Shown here one piece after another: positions 41,743 through 48,893 of a stretch of DNA of 64,000 bases; position 1 is the stretch's first letter, and every line of letters begins with the position of its first letter. The DNA comes from Enterobacteria phage vB_EcoM_IME339. Position numbers and translations under genes: made by a program. Under the pieces are notes generated by a model that searched no databases, was not told the origin of the DNA, and saw nothing but the letters and a program-made list of their open reading frames with translations. The stretch lies in sequence record MH051915; one strand, given 5' to 3'.

Positions 41743-41847
41743 GCAAATAAGAAATATGGGAACAAGCTGGACCTCATGATTCTATGAGGGATTCCCGCCA
41801 ACCTGTAATAAGGTCGAGCCTGAGTGCGGTAATGGGTAAATACAGAA

Positions 41848-42435
41848 ATGGACAATTCATGCGCCATGGAATGGCCCAAATTTAGAGAGAATAAAATGAG
41901 AACATTTTTAACTGGTCCTTATCTATCCCTGATGAATGCTTTTACACACCATTCTGATGCTAGAGTAGAAGAAATTTGTAAAAACGATTATATCCCACCA
42001 TTTGAAGACTTACTCAAACAGTATTGCACACTTCGACTAGATGGTGGACGTCAATCTGGTAAATCAACTGCTGTGACTAACTTTGCTGCTAATTGGCTGT
42101 ATGACGGTGGAACAGTTATTGTTCTTTCTAATACTTCAGCTTACGCTAAAATTTCTGCGGGCCACATTAAAAAAGAATTTTCGCGTTATTCTAATGATGA
42201 TATTCGATTCCGCTTATTTACTGATTCTGTGCGCAGTTTTATTGGCAATAAAGGAAGCAAGTTCAGGGGTTTATTGCTTTCGCGAATTTTGTATATAATT
42301 GATGAGCCTGTTAAAGCTCCCGATATGGATAAAATTTATGATATTCATATTGACACTGTACATTACTGTTGCAATAGCAAGTGTTGCATTGGTGGTATTA
42401 CTCGCCCGCAGTTTTTCGTAATTGGAATGCAATGA
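41848..42435 (+). CDS. Hypothetical protein (vs.8-like by position)
   Basis: 195 aa ORF; start uncertain (ATG 41848 or ATG 41896). Confidence 0.5.
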   Translation: MDNSCAMEWPKFRENKMRTFLTGPYLSLMNAFTHHSDARVEEICKNDYIPPFEDLLKQYCTLRLDGGRQSGKSTAVTNFAANWLYDGGTVIVLSNTSAYAKISAGHIKKEFSRYSNDDIRFRLFTDSVRSFIGNKGSKFRGLLLSRILYIIDEPVKAPDMDKIYDIHIDTVHYCCNSKCCIGGITRPQFFVIGMQ

Positions 42436-42761
42436 TGACAGATACGCAACTTTTCGAATATCTTTATTTTTCGCCAAAAACTATTAAAAATAAATTGGTG
42501 AATCATTTTGAAATTTTGGCAAATAACAACGTCTTGAGCGAATTTTATCCTAAGCAATACAAATTACAAAAAGGTGTATTCAAAGGATGCAGAGTTTTGT
42601 GTACTGCTCCTAATGCAAGATTAATGAATAAAATTCCATATTTTACCATGGAATTTATTGATGGACCTTTTAAAGGACTAATCACCCAAAGTTTAATGGC
42701 ATATGATTCTGAGCCATTTTTAATTAAAGAACAATCTTGGATAAATTTATTTTCTAATTGA
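42432..42761 (+). CDS. Hypothetical protein
   Basis: Track start 42381 is GTG; moved to ATG 42432 (MMTDTQ), overlapping the upstream stop. Confidence 0.5.
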
Positions 42762-42769
42762 GAGGTTAT

Positions 42770-43132
42770 ATGAAAGCATATCAAATTCTTGAAGGCACGC
42801 ATAAAGGTACTATTTATTTTGAAGATGGTATTCAAGCGCGAATTATTGTTTCTAAAACCTTTAAAGAGGACTCTTTTGTAGACCCAGAAATTTTCTATGG
42901 TTTGCATGCCCGTGAAATTGAAATTGAAACACAACCTACAGTTAAAATTGAAGGTGGTCAACACCTGAACGTTAACGTTCTGCGTCGTGAAACTCTGGAA
43001 GATGCAGTTAAGCATCCGGAAAAATATCCGCAGCTGACCATCCGTGTATCCGGTTATGCAGTTCGCTTTAACTCTCTGACTCCGGAACAGCAACGCGACG
43101 TTATTGCTCGTACCTTTACTGAGAGTTTGTAA
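42770..43132 (+). CDS. Autonomous glycyl radical cofactor (GrcA/YfiD-like)
   Basis: Track start 42758 is TTG; moved to ATG 42770; 120 aa; C-terminal ~58 aa ([59 protein letters not shown]) match E. coli GrcA as I recall it, with the glycyl radical signature RVSGY. Confidence 0.9.
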
Positions 43133-43353
43133 TGGCAAAGATAATTATTGAAGGTTCTGAAGATGTGTTAAATGCTTTCGCCGAATGGTTTAGTAATTCA
43201 GGCGAACAGCAATTTAATGAAGCGTGGAACATGGGTGATATTAGTGGAATTTATCCTACGACAGAAATTTCTGTTCAAGGATATGGAATTCATGAACCTA
43301 TTCGTTTAGTTGAATATGATTTATGTACTGGTGAGGAAGTCAAATATGATTGA
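43132..43353 (+). CDS. Hypothetical protein
   Basis: 73 aa; start overlaps upstream stop (TAATG). Confidence 0.5.
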   Translation: MAKIIIEGSEDVLNAFAEWFSNSGEQQFNEAWNMGDISGIYPTTEISVQGYGIHEPIRLVEYDLCTGEEVKYD

Positions 43354-43612
43354 AGATATTAAGGGTTATAAGCCACATACTGAAGAGAAAATCGGTAAAG
43401 TGAATGCTATCAAAGATGCTGAAGTTCGTTTAGGACTTATCTTTGATGCTTTATATGATGAATTCTGGGAAGCACTAGATAATTGTGAAGACTGTGAATT
43501 CGCGAAGAATTATGCTGAAAGCCTTGATCAGTTAACTATTGCTAAAACTAAACTCAAAGAAGCCAGTATGTGGGCTTGTCGTGCTGTGTTCCAACCAGAG
43601 GAAAAATATTAA
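43346..43612 (+). CDS. Hypothetical protein (vs.4/Acb2 candidate by position; unverified)
   Basis: Track start 43310 is TTG; moved to ATG 43346 with GAGGAAG RBS; 88 aa. Confidence 0.45.
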
Positions 43613-43890
43613 TGGCTCAATTAAGCGCAGGGTTTGGTTATGAGTATTATACTGCCCCTCGTCGTGTATCTGTCGCTCCTAAGAAAATTCAAAGTCTTGA
43701 TGACTTCCAAGAAGTAGTCCGTAAAGCTTTCCAGGACTACGCACGTTATCTTAAAGAAGATTCACAGGACTGTCTCGAAGAAGATGAAATTGCTTACTAT
43801 GAGCAGCGTCTTGAACAGCTTAAAAACCTACATGAGGTTCGTGCAGAAGTTACAAAGTCTATGAATAAATTGATTAGATTTAAAGAATAA
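43612..43890 (+). CDS. Hypothetical protein (vs.3-like by position)
   Basis: Track start moved to ATG 43612 (MAQLSAG), TAATG overlap; 92 aa. Confidence 0.45.
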
Positions 43891-43922
43891 CTGTTTACTT
43901 TTCCTCTTGACTGTGGTATAAT
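43890..43922 (+). promoter_or_regulatory. T4 early promoter for regB
   Basis: GTTTAC -35 and TGTGGTATAAT extended -10, ~30 nt upstream of the regB RBS. Confidence 0.7.
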
Positions 43923-43949
43923 TTTTCTATCAGTTAAGAGGAGAATAAC

Positions 43950-44411
43950 ATGACTATCAACACAGAAGTTTTTATCCGTCGAAATAAGCTCCGTCGTCAC
44001 TTTGAGTCGGAGTTTCGTCAAATTAACAATGAGATTCGTGAGGCATCAAAAGCAGCAGGGGTCTCATCGTTTCATCTAAAATATTCTCAACATCTTCTTG
44101 ATCGTGCAATTCAACGGGAGATTGATGAGACATATGTTTTTGAATTATTCCACAAAATAAAAGACCATGTTTTAGAAGTTAATGAATTCCTGAGTATGCC
44201 TCCACGCCCTGATATTGACGAAGATTTTATTGATGGTGTTGAATATCGTCCTGGGCGTTTAGAAATCACAGATGGAAATCTTTGGCTTGGATTTACAGTT
44301 TGTAAACCTAATGCGAAGTTCAAAGACCCGTCGCTTCAATGCAGGATGGCAATTATCAACAGTCGTCGTTTACCGGGAAAGGCTTCTAAGGCAGTAATTA
44401 AAACTCAATGA
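43950..44411 (+). CDS. regB: Sequence-specific endoribonuclease RegB
   Basis: 153 aa; MTINTEVFIRRNKLRRHFESEF N-terminus and length match T4 RegB. Confidence 0.85.
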   Translation: MTINTEVFIRRNKLRRHFESEFRQINNEIREASKAAGVSSFHLKYSQHLLDRAIQREIDETYVFELFHKIKDHVLEVNEFLSMPPRPDIDEDFIDGVEYRPGRLEITDGNLWLGFTVCKPNAKFKDPSLQCRMAIINSRRLPGKASKAVIKTQ

Positions 44412-44418
44412 GGTAAGC

Positions 44419-44964
44419 ATGAGAAAAGCACTACTCGCTGGTCTATTGGCCATTTCTATGATGGCACATAGCTCCGAGCATACTTTCAGTAATGTCCAAC
44501 TCGATAACATGCGTTACGCGTATCAATTCGGGGAACAATTTTCTAAGGATGGAAAATATAAAACACACAAAAATATCCACAAGAGCGGATTAGGCCATAT
44601 AATGGCTGCTATTTTATGGCAAGAAAGCTCTGCCGGAGTTAATTTAAAATCTAAACCAAAGCATCACGCTTATGGAATGTTCCAAAATTATTTGCCTACT
44701 ATGCGAGCGAGAGTTAAGGAACTTGGTTATAATATGACCGATGCTGAAATAAAAAGAATGTTGAATAAACGGTCCAATTCAGCTTCCTGGGCGTACATTG
44801 AACTTTCTTATTGGTTAAATATACATAAGGGCGATATAAGAAAGGCAATATCCTCTTATAATTCGGGATGGAATGTTAAAGCAGGTTCTAAATATGCTTC
44901 TGAAGTCCTAGAAAAGGCTAATTACCTTAAAAATAATAAACTTTTGGAAATAGTAAATGACTAA
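44419..44964 (+). CDS. Secreted protein, vs.1-like (possible lytic transglycosylase-like fold)
   Basis: 181 aa with N-terminal signal peptide MRKALLAGLLAISMMAHS; position between regB and vs. Confidence 0.55.
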   Translation: MRKALLAGLLAISMMAHSSEHTFSNVQLDNMRYAYQFGEQFSKDGKYKTHKNIHKSGLGHIMAAILWQESSAGVNLKSKPKHHAYGMFQNYLPTMRARVKELGYNMTDAEIKRMLNKRSNSASWAYIELSYWLNIHKGDIRKAISSYNSGWNVKAGSKYASEVLEKANYLKNNKLLEIVND

Positions 44965-45304
44965 AATTTTGGTTTTATGTATAGGATTAATTTCATTTTC
45001 TGCTTCTGCGTTAGCAAATACATCATATACTGAAATTAGAGAGTATGTAAATCGCACTGCGGCAGATTATTGTGGGAAAAATAAAGCATGCCAAGCTGAA
45101 TTTGCGCAGAAATTAATATATGCATATAAAGACGGAGAAAGAGATAAATCAAGCAGATACAAAAACGATACATTATTAAAACGATATGCTAAAAAGTGGA
45201 ATACCTTAGAATGTTCAGTTGCGGAGGAGAAAGATAAAGCCGCTTGTCATTCAATGGTTGACCGTTTGGTAGATTCTTATAATCGAGGATTGAGTACTAG
45301 ATGA
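44957..45304 (+). CDS. vs: Valyl-tRNA synthetase modifier Vs (by position and length)
   Basis: 115 aa with signal-like N-terminus; follows vs.1 as in T4. Confidence 0.55.
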   Translation: MTKILVLCIGLISFSASALANTSYTEIREYVNRTAADYCGKNKACQAEFAQKLIYAYKDGERDKSSRYKNDTLLKRYAKKWNTLECSVAEEKDKAACHSMVDRLVDSYNRGLSTR

Positions 45305-45768
45305 TTGTAAAATATATCAAGGGCGATATTGTCGCCCTTTTCGCTGAAGGTAAAAATATTGCGCATGGATGCAATTGTTTTCATACTATGGGTTCAGGCG
45401 TAGCGGGTCAATTAACCAAAGCTTTCCCTAAAATTTTGGAAGCTGATAAATTACAGACTGAATGGGGTGATGTAACTAAACTTGGTTCTTACTCAGTCTA
45501 TGAAAAATACTTTAGGACTCATAAAGCGTATTGCTTCAACCTTTATACTCAATTTCAACCAGGGCCAAATTTTGAGTATTCCGCTTTAATGAATTGTATG
45601 TTAGAATTAAATGAGTTTGGTGAAAATAAACTGATTAAACCTACAATCTATATGCCTAGGATTGGTGCAGGCATAGGTAAAGGGAACTGGGATATTATTG
45701 AGGGGATTTTAGATACATATTCCTCTAAATTAGAAATTGTGATTGTTGATTGGGAACCATTATTATGA
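45301..45768 (+). CDS. Macro-domain protein (putative ADP-ribose binding/hydrolase)
   Basis: 155 aa; N-terminal GDIVALFAEGKNIAHGCNCFHTMGSGVAGQL resembles the macro-domain diphosphate-binding motif. Confidence 0.6.
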   Translation: MIVKYIKGDIVALFAEGKNIAHGCNCFHTMGSGVAGQLTKAFPKILEADKLQTEWGDVTKLGSYSVYEKYFRTHKAYCFNLYTQFQPGPNFEYSALMNCMLELNEFGENKLIKPTIYMPRIGAGIGKGNWDIIEGILDTYSSKLEIVIVDWEPLL

Positions 45769-45977
45769 ATATACATTATCCACATCCATATGACCCAAAG
45801 AATAAGGCAGTAATTATTCGTCAATGGGAACGCATTTGCCGTACTAAATGCCCAATTAATAGTCCACATGACGTAGATAAAGACTACATTGGAACATTCG
45901 TTGAATATACCTTTATTGATAAGAAAGGTCGTAAACAGCATGTAGAAGAATACTGCTTAAAGGTTACATGGTTATGA
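45765..45977 (+). CDS. Hypothetical protein
   Basis: Track start 45750 is TTG; moved to ATG 45765 (ATGA overlap); 70 aa. Confidence 0.45.
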   Translation: MNIHYPHPYDPKNKAVIIRQWERICRTKCPINSPHDVDKDYIGTFVEYTFIDKKGRKQHVEEYCLKVTWL

Positions 45978-46180
45978 GCCAAACTAGTATTCTTAAAAAT
46001 GCCCATTGTGAAAAGTGTAAATGGCCAGTTGTTTTTGCTTTATGCAACGATGAAATGGCTTGTGATTTCGATTATTGGTGCTATTGTTCTAATAAAGGAT
46101 GCATCAATCATAAAGGTGAAGGATTTTATTCGGGATTTTATCCTTATCCAGATTTCGTTAAAGAAGGTAAACCGAAATGA
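45968..46180 (+). CDS. Small Cys-rich protein (possible zinc binding)
   Basis: 70 aa with CxxC...CxxxxC...C pattern. Confidence 0.5.
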   Translation: MVMSQTSILKNAHCEKCKWPVVFALCNDEMACDFDYWCYCSNKGCINHKGEGFYSGFYPYPDFVKEGKPK

Positions 46181-46350
46181 ATAGTTCTGAGTTACAGTAT
46201 GAAGTGTTACGTGAGCTTGATAATTTAATTGAACTCGCTGTCAATAAAGGTTTTGCCATTGGAATCGGTCAAAAAGATACTGGTCATTTAACTATGGAAA
46301 TATTTAAGCAAAAGCGAATTATTTTAAAACTCCTGGAAATTAATATATGA
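46177..46350 (+). CDS. Hypothetical small protein (57 aa, below the ORF-track cut-off)
   Basis: ATGA overlap with upstream stop, and its own stop overlaps the next start; fills an otherwise uncoded gap. Confidence 0.4.
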   Translation: MNSSELQYEVLRELDNLIELAVNKGFAIGIGQKDTGHLTMEIFKQKRIILKLLEINI

Positions 46351-46532
46351 GTCTGAGTAAAGAACAAAAAGATAAATTGTTTGAGCTTATCCATGAACTT
46401 CTAGATGAGCATACAGAAGCAAACACCTTTTATGATGAATACGGCCCGCTATCTCCCGAACAGCAAGAAGAATTTGCTGATCGGTTTGATAAGAAAGAAA
46501 ACGAATTAATAGCTTATGTGAATACGCTTTAA
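46347..46532 (+). CDS. Hypothetical protein
   Basis: 61 aa acidic ORF immediately upstream of tk. Confidence 0.5.
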   Translation: MSLSKEQKDKLFELIHELLDEHTEANTFYDEYGPLSPEQQEEFADRFDKKENELIAYVNTL

Positions 46533-46541
46533 GAAGGTGAT

Positions 46542-47123
46542 ATGGCGAGTTTAATTTTTACTTATGCAGCAATGAATGCTGGAAAATCTGCTTCTCTTTT
46601 GACTGCTGCGCATAATTATAAAGAGCGCGGAATGAGTGTATTAGTTCTTAAGCCTGCTATTGATACTCGCGATTCTGTCTGTGAAGTCGTTTCTCGCATT
46701 GGAATTAAGCAGGAAGCAAATATTATTACAGATGATATGGATATTTTCGAGTTCTATAAATGGGCTGAAGCACAAAAAGATATTCATTGCGTATTTGTAG
46801 ATGAAGCCCAGTTTTTAAAAACTGAACAGGTGCATCAATTGAGCCGAATTGTTGATACATATAATGTTCCTGTTATGGCCTATGGTCTAAGGACTGATTT
46901 CGCCGGAAAATTATTTGAAGGTTCTAAAGAACTTTTGGCGATTGCAGATAAACTTATTGAACTAAAGGCAGTTTGTCATTGTGGTAAAAAAGCTATTATG
47001 ACAGCTCGATTAATGGAAGATGGAACACCCGTTAAAGAAGGTAATCAAATCTGTATTGGTGATGAAATTTATGTTTCTTTGTGTAGAAAACATTGGAATG
47101 AATTAACTAAAAAGCTCGGTTAG
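46542..47123 (+). CDS. tk: Thymidine kinase
   Basis: 193 aa; P-loop AMNAGKSAS and C-terminal zinc-ribbon cysteines; length as T4 Tk. Confidence 0.93.
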   Translation: MASLIFTYAAMNAGKSASLLTAAHNYKERGMSVLVLKPAIDTRDSVCEVVSRIGIKQEANIITDDMDIFEFYKWAEAQKDIHCVFVDEAQFLKTEQVHQLSRIVDTYNVPVMAYGLRTDFAGKLFEGSKELLAIADKLIELKAVCHCGKKAIMTARLMEDGTPVKEGNQICIGDEIYVSLCRKHWNELTKKLG

Positions 47124-47165
47124 TGCAAAAGTTATAAATAGGTTTATCTAACTAAAGGGGTATAT

Positions 47166-47378
47166 ATGCTACAATTAACTGAAAAGCAACTTCGCAATCT
47201 TACTGTTCTTCAATTAGATGAAATTCGTAGGGAAGTTGGAAATATCATTTCAGCTTTGCGTCGAGAAGTATCACTCAACCAATCTCCGGCAGACTATACT
47301 AGATTGCGAAATTTTGAAAAATACCTTGATAAAGTTAAGGCCGTGCATCGGCATAAAGTAAATACAGGACAAAAATGA
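47166..47378 (+). CDS. Hypothetical protein (rI.1-like by position)
   Basis: 70 aa; TATAAATA motif at 47133-47140 upstream. Confidence 0.5.
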
Positions 47379-47390
47379 TAGGAGGCCTTT

Positions 47391-47684
47391 ATGGCCTTAA
47401 AAGCAACGGCACTATTTGCCATGCTAGGATTAGCGTTTGCTTTATCTCCACCGATTGAAGCGAATGTCGATCCTCATTTTGATAAATTTATGGAATCTGG
47501 TATTAGACACGTTTATATGCTTTTTGAAAACAAAAGCGTAGAATCATCTGAACAGTTCTATAGTTTTATGCGAACGACTTATAAAAATGACCCGTGCTCT
47601 TCCGATTTTGAATGTATAGAGCGAGGCGCGGAGATGGCACAATCATACGCTAGAATTATGAACATTAAATTGGAGACTGAATGA
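47391..47684 (+). CDS. rI: Lysis inhibition regulator RI (periplasmic antiholin)
   Basis: 97 aa with signal peptide MALKATALFAMLGLAFALS; position next to tk as in T4. Confidence 0.75.
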   Translation: MALKATALFAMLGLAFALSPPIEANVDPHFDKFMESGIRHVYMLFENKSVESSEQFYSFMRTTYKNDPCSSDFECIERGAEMAQSYARIMNIKLETE

Positions 47685-48067
47685 AATTCAGCGACTTTTC
47701 ACAAAGTGGAAAACCTTCAAAGGCAGATGAATACTTAGGTTTATTAATGGCTGCACAAGCTTATTTTCATTCTGCGCATTTTGAAACTAAAAATTATGCT
47801 AGACACAAAGCATACGATTTTATTTTCTCCGAGTTGCCAGATTTGATTGATAAATTTGGTGAGCAATATTTGGGGTATTCTGGTAGAAAATACACGCCGT
47901 CAATTCCGGATGCCAGTAAACTTCCTACCGACACAATTAAAATGATTGATCGTATACTAGACCAATCTGACAGCATTTACAAAGAAATGCCTCCAGCCAT
48001 TCAAAGCACGATAGATGATATTACTGGAATGTTTTACCAGAGTAAGTATCTTCTTTCCCTCGAATAA
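47681..48067 (+). CDS. Hypothetical protein (rI.-1-like by position)
   Basis: 128 aa; ATGA overlap with the rI stop. Confidence 0.5.
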
Positions 48068-48071
48068 CATT

Positions 48072-48096
48072 AGTCTCCTTCGGGAGACTTTTTTCA
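48072..48096 (+). terminator. Rho-independent terminator
   Basis: AGTCTCC-TTCG-GGAGACT hairpin followed by TTTTTT. Confidence 0.7.
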
Positions 48097-48099
48097 TTT

Positions 48100-48136
48100 T
48101 ACCGGTTTACTTTCCATTTGAGCTGTGATACTATAC
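48100..48136 (+). promoter_or_regulatory. T4 early promoter
   Basis: GTTTAC -35 and TGTGATACTATAC extended -10, directly after the terminator. Confidence 0.65.
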
Positions 48137-48162
48137 AACCATCGGATAAAGAGGAGAACATC

Positions 48163-48351
48163 ATGAAAATTGAAGCACTTAATCAAGAAGGAAATATCTA
48201 CGTCATCATTAATGGTGATTTTTTCGTCGACATGGATGAAGTTACTAGTGAAGAACTTGTAGAACTTCTTAAGAAACGCTATGATATGTGTGATGAAGCT
48301 GCAACTCATATGGCGTGTGCAATATTCTCTCTTTCATATGTGGTGGAATAA
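48163..48351 (+). CDS. Hypothetical small protein
   Basis: Track start 48118 is TTG inside the promoter; moved to ATG 48163 (MKIEALNQ) with GAGGAG RBS. Confidence 0.5.
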
Positions 48352-48533
48352 TGATTAGTATCGAACAAGCAGATAAAATTAAAGAATTGGTAGCTTTAAT
48401 TCGCAAAGCAGATGAGGAACGCGTTAACTTTGCCTTATCAGGTATTGAAGAATTTGAAGCTAAAGTTGATAATGCTTTAGAAGCTTTAGATATGTTTCTT
48501 GATGAAATTATCGATCATAATACGAGAGTTTAA
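48351..48533 (+). CDS. Hypothetical small protein
   Basis: Track start moved to ATG 48351 (MISIEQ), TAATG overlap. Confidence 0.45.
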   Translation: MISIEQADKIKELVALIRKADEERVNFALSGIEEFEAKVDNALEALDMFLDEIIDHNTRV

Positions 48534-48535
48534 GT

Positions 48536-48730
48536 ATGCTAACACGTGAACAGTTTGAAAAAATCATTAAATTAGCACGTGATATTGAAATAGATTCATA
48601 CCAATTGGCAGTTGAGCATTGTGAAGGATATTCATACGATGGTATAGAAGCAGCTAAAAAGGATTTGGATAAATCCAAAGCTAAGTTAGTTCAATATCTT
48701 GAAATGATTAGGTGGAATAATGAAAACTGA
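48536..48730 (+). CDS. Hypothetical small protein
   Basis: 64 aa. Confidence 0.45.
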   Translation: MLTREQFEKIIKLARDIEIDSYQLAVEHCEGYSYDGIEAAKKDLDKSKAKLVQYLEMIRWNNEN

Positions 48731-48893
48731 AAAGCAGATGTTTTTAATGAAGCTAATTGAAGAATATGCTAACGCAGTTTCTGACTATGAGTATTCTGCT
48801 CGGGAAAGAGGTACAGCTTTCGCAAAGGAAGAAATGAAAATCATGGTTGATGCTCACACAAAGCTTCAGAATTTTATTGAAAACGTCATTTAA
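48720..48893 (+). CDS. Hypothetical small protein (57 aa, below the ORF-track cut-off)
   Basis: ATG 48720 preceded by GGTGGAATAATG RBS; overlaps the upstream stop. Confidence 0.4.
   Translation: MKTEKQMFLMKLIEEYANAVSDYEYSARERGTAFAKEEMKIMVDAHTKLQNFIENVI

Follow-up and report, generated by a model that had tools for sequence, protein, structure and literature searches.

Organization of the tk.4 locus

The window, i.e., the whole 64,000-nucleotide stretch of Enterobacteria phage vB_EcoM_IME339 DNA (sequence record MH051915) that was analyzed, contains a stand-alone macrodomain gene, tk.4/adfM, which is flanked by closely spaced phage genes (Table 1). Its product is identical in all 155 of 155 residues to Tk.4 of phage T4 (NP_049723.1), and the gene matches its T4 counterpart at 462 of 468 nucleotides in blastn, with all six changes being synonymous. 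It occupies the same slot as in T4, between vs and tk.3, and both the identity and this position place it in the T4 Tk.4/AdfM orthologous group; the protein additionally matches PHROG 335 ("phosphatase") with E = 1.3e-65. The flanking segments 41754–45978 and 46542–48886 are 96–97% identical to T4 in blastn, with the identity being 96% over 4.2 kb. Furthermore, the region 44400–47200 matches 728 phage records in megablast, nearly all of them from Tequatrovirus and relatives, and the best match is Escherichia phage IME537 with 99.8% identity. The original prediction had located the macro gene beside the vs/regB cluster, which is correct, as regB, vs.1, and vs lie directly 5' of it.

Table 1. 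Features of the tk.4 locus in window coordinates.
Feature	Position	Strand	Basis
Best sigma-70-like candidate promoter, TTTACT-17-TATAAT with TG, just 5' of regB	43894..43922	+	promoter scan
regB, vs.1, vs: co-oriented, tightly packed 5' of tk.4	43950..45304	+	
regB	43950..44411		IME537 annotation
T4 vs.1 counterpart (hypothetical protein)	44419..44964		IME537 annotation
vs	44957..45304		IME537 annotation
Shine-Dalgarno-like GAGGA, 11 nt 5' of ATG (putative role)	45285..45289	+	sequence read directly
tk.4/adfM CDS, stand-alone macrodomain; ATG start, TGA stop, 155 codons	45301..45768	+	ORF list
"Macro domain protein"	45301..45768		IME537 annotation
ATGA, tk.4 start overlapping vs stop; possible translational coupling	45301..45304	+	sequence
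Loop 1 and start of helix 2, H22-A35 (HGCNCFHTMGSGVA); predicted ADP-ribose-binding loop	45364..45405	+	conservation in 54 and 120 homologs
Asp49 codon, family-specific invariant residue	45445..45447	+	alignments
N80-L-Y-T-Q84 motif, end of strand beta-4	45538..45552	+	profile-to-PDB and MAFFT alignments
Loop 2, P119-W130 (PRIGAGIGKGNW); predicted Gly-rich phosphate-binding loop	45655..45690	+	alignments
ATGA, tk.4 stop overlapping tk.3 start	45765..45768	+	sequence
tk.3 (T4 counterpart)	45765..45977	+	blastn
ORF, 70 aa, Cys-rich, PHROG 2306; replaces T4 tk.2/tk.1 region	45968..46180		
ORF, 57 aa, PHROG 3452; replaces T4 tk.2/tk.1 region	46177..46350		
ORF, 61 aa, PHROG 653; replaces T4 tk.2/tk.1 region	46347..46532		
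Thymidine kinase	46542..47123		IME537 annotation

The genes regB, vs.1, vs, and tk.4 probably constitute one early transcription unit. The number of promoter-like sites detected in the region by the promoter scan did not exceed the expectation from shuffled sequences; thus, the timing of expression is deduced from knowledge of T4 and from the packing of the genes. Within codons 7–13 of tk.4, a hairpin with an 8-bp stem, AAGGGCGA-tattg-TCGCCCTT, spans positions 45319–45339. On the minus strand, where GATATATTTT comes next, the hairpin received a terminator-like score; an antisense terminator, a translational element, and mere chance are all conceivable.

Two further genes upstream of tk.4 deserve mention. 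The vs.6 homolog (42758–43132) encodes a GrcA-like autonomous glycyl-radical cofactor with the C-terminal sequence RVSGYAVRF. The product of the vs.1 homolog (44419–44964) begins with what, by eye, resembles a signal sequence and weakly matches lytic tail proteins, in agreement with a 2006 study in which vs.1 was matched to SLT transglycosylases (PMC1524935). Both genes are known from T4.

Downstream of tk.4, the ORF at 45765–45977 was first read as an extra gene missing in T4; blastn identified it as T4 tk.3. The adjoining stretch, 45978–46541, shows no blastn similarity to T4 despite lying between the two highly similar flanks. The site of T4 tk.2/tk.1 is occupied here by three small co-oriented ORFs, which gives the interval from tk.3 to tk the appearance of a small hyperplastic cassette.

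Macrodomain fold and structural class

The original prediction had proposed a macro domain on the basis of an N-terminal motif, which corresponds to residues 8–38 of Tk.4, and this assignment is borne out by the Pfam profile, the AlphaFold2 model, and the structure matches, all of which are macro. Tk.4 matches PF01661 (Macro) with 27.7 bits (gathering cut-off 22; E = 2.9e-6) over positions 2–113 of the 118-position profile. The AlphaFold2 model, which was built on an alignment of 54 homologs, has a pLDDT of 95.5 and a pTM of 0.90 and adopts the three-layer α/β/α macro fold. An A1pp/macro domain has been recognized in tk.4 orthologs since at least 2006 (PMC1524935), and the T4 record describes Tk.4 as "phosphatase; contains A1pp phosphatase motif".

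Tk.4 is a macrodomain of the ALC1-like class. Every one of its top structural matches is an ALC1-like macrodomain, DarG with bound ADP-ribose among them. By sequence, the solved structures nearest to it are those of Bacteroides Bt_1257 (1.3e-9), yeast Poa1p, the DarG macrodomains, and human TARG1. With the profile of 54 homologs, ALC1-like structures are matched at 4e-17 to 6e-11, whereas coronavirus Mac1 is matched at just 2e-3. Both in sequence and in structure, Tk.4 is nearer to the ALC1-like class than to the MacroD, viral Mac1, PARG, and macroH2A types.

Tk.4 contains the two Gly-rich loops expected to bind the ADP-ribose and phosphate moieties, and its segments M30-G-S-G-V-A35 and I121-G-A-G-I-G-K-G128 align with the corresponding loops of TARG1, DarG, Poa1p, and Bt_1257. 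In the alignments of 54 and 120 homologs, N25, C26, G33, and A35 of loop 1 are invariant, as are G122 and G124 of loop 2. The residues of the family that are invariant or nearly so comprise N25, C26, G33, A35, N80, Y82, T83, P119, G122, and G124.

Active-site residues

Despite the shared class, the predicted catalytic center of Tk.4 is not DarG-like. Both the profile-to-PDB alignment and the MAFFT alignment of 120 homologs with reference proteins place Gln84 at the position of the catalytic Lys, i.e., Lys84 in TARG1 and Lys80 in DarG, and in both alignments Bt_1257 also has Gln at this position. Gln84 is kept in 118 of the 120 homologs and in all 80 bacterial relatives. Moreover, the residue aligned with the catalytic Asp125 of TARG1 is Gly126 in Tk.4 and Ala in most relatives. 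Asp49 is kept in 117/120 homologs and 80/80 bacterial relatives; at this position, a Tyr is found in DarG, PhiKZ gp104, Poa1p, and Bt_1257, and TARG1 has a gap. The mobile loop of Tk.4 is of the same length as that of DarG and TARG1, whereas Bt_1257, compared with the profile of the Tk.4 family, has six additional residues (SKGLPP) inserted.

These residues bear on the enzymatic activity that the original prediction had made dependent on the presence of the catalytic residues. The canonical Lys of TARG1 and DarG is indeed missing; however, activity is not thereby refuted, since SCO6735, a proven hydrolase of thymidine-ADP-ribose (T-ADPr), has an essential Gln at this position. SCO6735 is 54% identical to Bt_1257 and lacks the Lys/Asp dyad, and its Gln85 corresponds to K84 of TARG1 and K80 of DarG (PMC9411070). 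The enzyme removes DarT-made thymidine-ADP-ribose from DNA faster than DarG or TARG1 and rescues E. coli from DarT, and the substitutions Q85A and Q85E each render it completely inactive (PMC9411070). A water-mediated, backbone-assisted catalysis, in which Gln positions the distal ribose, was proposed by the authors, who also described a mobile loop that is five residues longer than in DarG/TARG1 and contributes Lys89 and Lys94 to DNA binding (PMC9411070). The equivalence between Tk.4 and SCO6735 is transitive, as it was drawn via Bt_1257 and the structure-based equivalence in that study.

Distribution in phages and bacteria

The family is widespread among phages, with tblastn matches to Tk.4 in 2,845 of 50,697 phage records, 2,463 of which cover at least 80% of the protein. 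The hosts of the matching phages include Escherichia, Klebsiella, Salmonella, Pseudomonas, Vibrio, Acinetobacter, and Aeromonas. A scan of prokaryotes, in which each species was represented by one genome, yielded at least 519 confirmed Tk.4-like stretches, many of them on megabase chromosomal contigs, and 80 loci were kept for the analysis of genomic context. H22, N25, C26, D49, N80, Y82, and Q84 are retained in 80/80 of these bacterial loci. Since D49, N80, Y82, and Q84 lay outside the search patterns, their retention constitutes independent evidence.

Nearly all of the 80 bacterial loci are stand-alone genes encoding roughly 140–180 amino acids. No tblastn match to DarT2 was found within 4 kb of any of the 80, nor did these loci have a conserved neighbor beyond lineage-level synteny (maximum 9/80). 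The stand-alone copies without a nearby DarT2 thus indicate that the Tk.4 family is an orphan in cells too, as is SCO6735, and not a detached DarG.

Homologs carrying bacterial names were also examined for a cellular origin. Two contigs from metagenome-assembled genomes (MAGs) labeled Bacilli and Culicoidibacterales (JBOFGC010000414.1 and JBOFQK010000158.1) carry T4-type Rnl1, PNKP, dCMP deaminase, spanin, and Dda-like helicase; evidently, they derive from T4-like phages and were binned into the MAGs. The homologs on chromosomal contigs described above are genuine. In JBOFGC010000414.1, the macrodomain gene is found downstream of the RNA ligase 1 gene, at a distance of two genes. In Acinetobacter phage B09_Aci02-2 (MH800199.1) and Vibrio phage Noelle (OQ095919.1), the Tk.4 homolog stands beside NAD/PRPP genes, namely those for nicotinamide phosphoribosyltransferase and ribose-phosphate pyrophosphokinase, which hints at a linkage of Tk.4 homologs with phage NAD+ salvage in some lineages.

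Role in resistance to DarTG2

The toxin DarT2 blocks replication by ADP-ribosylating thymidine within TNTC motifs of single-stranded DNA. T4 lacking both adfA and adfN stays resistant to DarTG2, from which a further anti-DarTG factor was inferred by the authors (PMC11825919). In the HIDEN-SEQ preprint of November 2025, in which a T4 transposon library was grown on a DarTG2-expressing host, tk.4 was the only T4 gene found to be conditionally essential on that host; a clean tk.4 knockout rendered T4 sensitive to DarTG2, and the gene was renamed adfM (bioRxiv 10.1101/2025.11.20.689424). The authors state that enzymatic removal of ADP-ribose from DNA "seems likely", based on fold similarity to M. 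tuberculosis DarG (bioRxiv 10.1101/2025.11.20.689424). The leading hypothesis of the original prediction, that the macro protein counters a DarT-like toxin, is therefore supported and not new, as the preprint reports this requirement for a T4 protein of identical sequence. Nor are the gene itself, the macro annotation, and the action against DarTG2 new to the record. As for enzymology, none was found in the literature for T4 Tk.4, and the available part of the preprint, the source of the genetic evidence, shows neither complementation nor catalytic mutants.

Phage T5 provides a consistency check. It contains no detectable relative of Tk.4, since the best six-frame match to the family profile reached 9.9 bits (E = 0.04) and no ORF of T5 matches the family; T5 is sensitive to DarTG2 (PMC11825919; bioRxiv 10.1101/2025.11.20.689424). 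This combination is consistent with the anti-DarT2 role. T5.105, annotated as "Sir2", was considered as a hidden macrodomain and rejected, as by eye it starts with DxDGVL in the manner of HAD-type phosphatases.

Proposed mechanism and alternative readings

We propose that Tk.4 is a macrodomain that removes thymidine-ADP-ribose from phage DNA by a Lys-independent, Gln84-dependent hydrolysis, a reading to which we assign a probability of roughly three in four. Tk.4 would be made early in infection from the regB–vs.1–vs–tk.4 gene string and would protect the DNA of the phage against the host toxin DarT2 during replication. Its two Gly-rich loops would hold the ADP-ribose moiety on the thymidine of single-stranded phage DNA, Gln84 would position the distal ribose and the transition state, and a bound water would catalyze the hydrolysis of the thymidine–ADP-ribose bond, by which normal DNA would be restored. 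Such a reaction probably requires no lysine, which would set it apart from the Lys-based chemistry of DarG and TARG1 and liken it to that of Streptomyces SCO6735; because the catalytic Lys is replaced by Gln in both Tk.4 and SCO6735, Tk.4 is better modeled on SCO6735 than on DarG.

The proposed hydrolysis has to be reconciled with the fact that Tk.4 has neither the Lys essential in DarG nor the long DNA-binding loop of SCO6735. This double lack raises the possibility of a third, hitherto undescribed catalytic arrangement. Tentatively, the proteins with the signature H-G-C-N-C ... Asp49 ... N-x-Y-T-Gln84 may thus form a distinct, very widespread stand-alone ALC1-like subfamily, which may employ such an arrangement, possibly via Asp49, and may also act beyond the thymidine adduct of DarT2, e.g., on other nucleic-acid ADP-ribose marks; we regard this extension as possible but doubtful.

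Protection may, alternatively, be non-catalytic, in that Tk.4 would act as an antitoxin mimic that binds and inhibits DarT2 or covers the modified DNA. The catalytically dead variants SCO6735 Q85A, DarG K80A, and TARG1 K84A inhibit DarT in vitro by interaction (PMC9411070); thus, genetic protection alone does not prove hydrolysis by Tk.4. Such a role would also accord with the missing DarG catalytic Lys and with the phage anti-DarT factors AdfA and AdfB, which are described as direct inhibitors. However, Tk.4 (155 aa versus a model of ~330 positions) has no equivalent of the C-terminal DarT-binding domain of DarG, and neither N25 and Q84 nor the two Gly loops vary among phages or among at least 80 bacterial species without a nearby darT. 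An active-site-like invariance of this kind is more in keeping with an enzyme than with a protein that binds one specific partner, and we consider a mainly non-catalytic role improbable.

A comparably small likelihood is given to a main role in small-molecule metabolism, in which Tk.4 would be an Appr-1''-p phosphatase similar to Poa1p or an O-acetyl-ADP-ribose deacetylase and its effect against DarT2 a side activity. The "A1pp phosphatase" label in the T4 record and the "phosphatase" name of PHROG 335 agree with such a role, but this annotation is a transferred domain name, and the sole phenotype on record is DarTG2 sensitivity (bioRxiv 10.1101/2025.11.20.689424). Poa1p ranks high among the matches of Tk.4 both by structure and by sequence and, like Tk.4, has the H-x-C-N-C motif and no Lys; moreover, some phage homologs adjoin NAD-salvage genes and one is near RNA-repair genes. 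Nevertheless, Poa1p has Ser at position 84, where the Tk.4 family has an invariant Gln, as does the DNA hydrolase SCO6735.

T4-like phages encode three ADP-ribosyltransferases, Alt, ModA, and ModB. The residue modified by Alt and the Mod enzymes is arginine, and the ALC1-like macrodomain class is not known to cleave this linkage. Regulation of the phage's own transferases, which the original prediction had offered as a second role, has no support, and although SCO6735 and TARG1 also remove Glu/Asp-linked ADP-ribose from proteins (PMC9411070), it is very improbable that Tk.4 reverses or tunes the modification of host proteins or RNA by the three, given the Arg linkage, the recovery of tk.4 as a hit specifically on the DarTG2 host (bioRxiv 10.1101/2025.11.20.689424), and the conservation of the family in numerous bacteria, where nothing in its vicinity points to phage transferases.

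Implications

With hydrolysis of thymidine-ADP-ribose as the preferred reading, a real anti-defense gene, i.e., a likely phage eraser of the marks of a DNA-ADP-ribosylating toxin, has been recovered by reading the sequence alone. The biological news is small, as the gene, annotation, and role had been recorded; what is new here is mechanistic, namely that the two proteins named AdfM represent distinct macrodomain subfamilies, with Gln as the catalytic residue in T4 Tk.4 and Lys in PhiKZ gp104. A catalytically dead control of Tk.4 should consequently be designed as Q84A or N25A and not as a Lys mutant. The difference between Gln and Lys also bears on the annotation of thousands of phage and bacterial homologs that are labeled "phosphatase".

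Comparison with known macrodomains and anti-DarT factors

The identification of Tk.4 as a DarG antitoxin was rejected, as it lacks four defining features of DarG, namely the score, the C-terminal domain, the Lys, and an adjacent darT. Against the NCBIfam DarG equivalog NF048014, Tk.4 scores 30.3 bits, with the cut-off being 250; the macrodomain portion of the PADLOC DarG model matches it with E = 1.3e-9, and its 155 residues cover only positions 2–146 of the DarG models (338 and 329 positions). DarG (5M31/5M3E from T. aquaticus and 5M3I from M. tuberculosis) possesses a C-terminal DarT-binding domain, which is missing in Tk.4, and employs a catalytic Lys80 in place of Gln84. Furthermore, DarG is encoded beside darT, whereas the neighbors of tk.4 are vs and tk.3.

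Human TARG1/OARD1 and yeast Poa1p belong to the same ALC1-like class as Tk.4, with comparable profile and fold scores. TARG1 contains the Lys84/Asp125 dyad, in contrast to Gln84 and Gly126 in Tk.4. Poa1p shares the H-x-C-N-C motif; however, it differs in having Ser at the Gln84 position, a large insertion, and a small-molecule substrate. SCO6735 and Bt_1257 (PDB 5E3B and 2FG1/2AFC, respectively), which are about 26–29% identical to Tk.4, share with it the Gln at the catalytic Lys position. Their mobile loop, a defining trait of this subclass, is 5–6 residues longer and carries DNA-binding lysines that are absent from Tk.4; additionally, Bt_1257 has Tyr at the Asp49 position, and the H-G-C-N-C / N-x-Y-T-Q signature is Tk.4's own.

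Among the phage factors, AdfN of T4 (gene 30.3), which counters DarTG1, resembles an antitoxin without its toxin and, as an ADP-ribosylglycohydrolase, clears the marks left by DarT, the same strategy as that proposed for Tk.4 (PMC11825919). However, AdfN has the unrelated NADAR fold, is specific for the guanosine-ADPr of DarT1, and does not counter DarTG2 (PMC11825919). AdfM of T4 is the same protein as the Tk.4 described here, the differences being confined to the six synonymous changes in the gene and to a phage in which the tk.2/tk.1 region is replaced. PhiKZ gp104, which was independently named AdfM, removes T-ADPr from an oligonucleotide in vitro, with reduced activity of the N23A variant on T-ADPr DNA, and the study states that no macrodomain Adf had previously been reported (Cell Rep 2026, PMC13309987). 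Both gp104 and Tk.4 are stand-alone phage macrodomains countering DarTG2 and share the conserved Asn (N23 in gp104 and N25 in Tk.4), around which their BLAST alignment spans only 23 residues (E = 0.005). The activity of gp104 has been demonstrated in vitro, whereas the evidence on T4 Tk.4 is genetic. Moreover, gp104 is a Lys-type, DarG-like protein (FPTKDNW) that matches M. tuberculosis DarG at about 1e-24, whereas Tk.4 is of the Gln type and belongs to another subfamily; AdfM is thus one name for two non-orthologous phage macrodomains.
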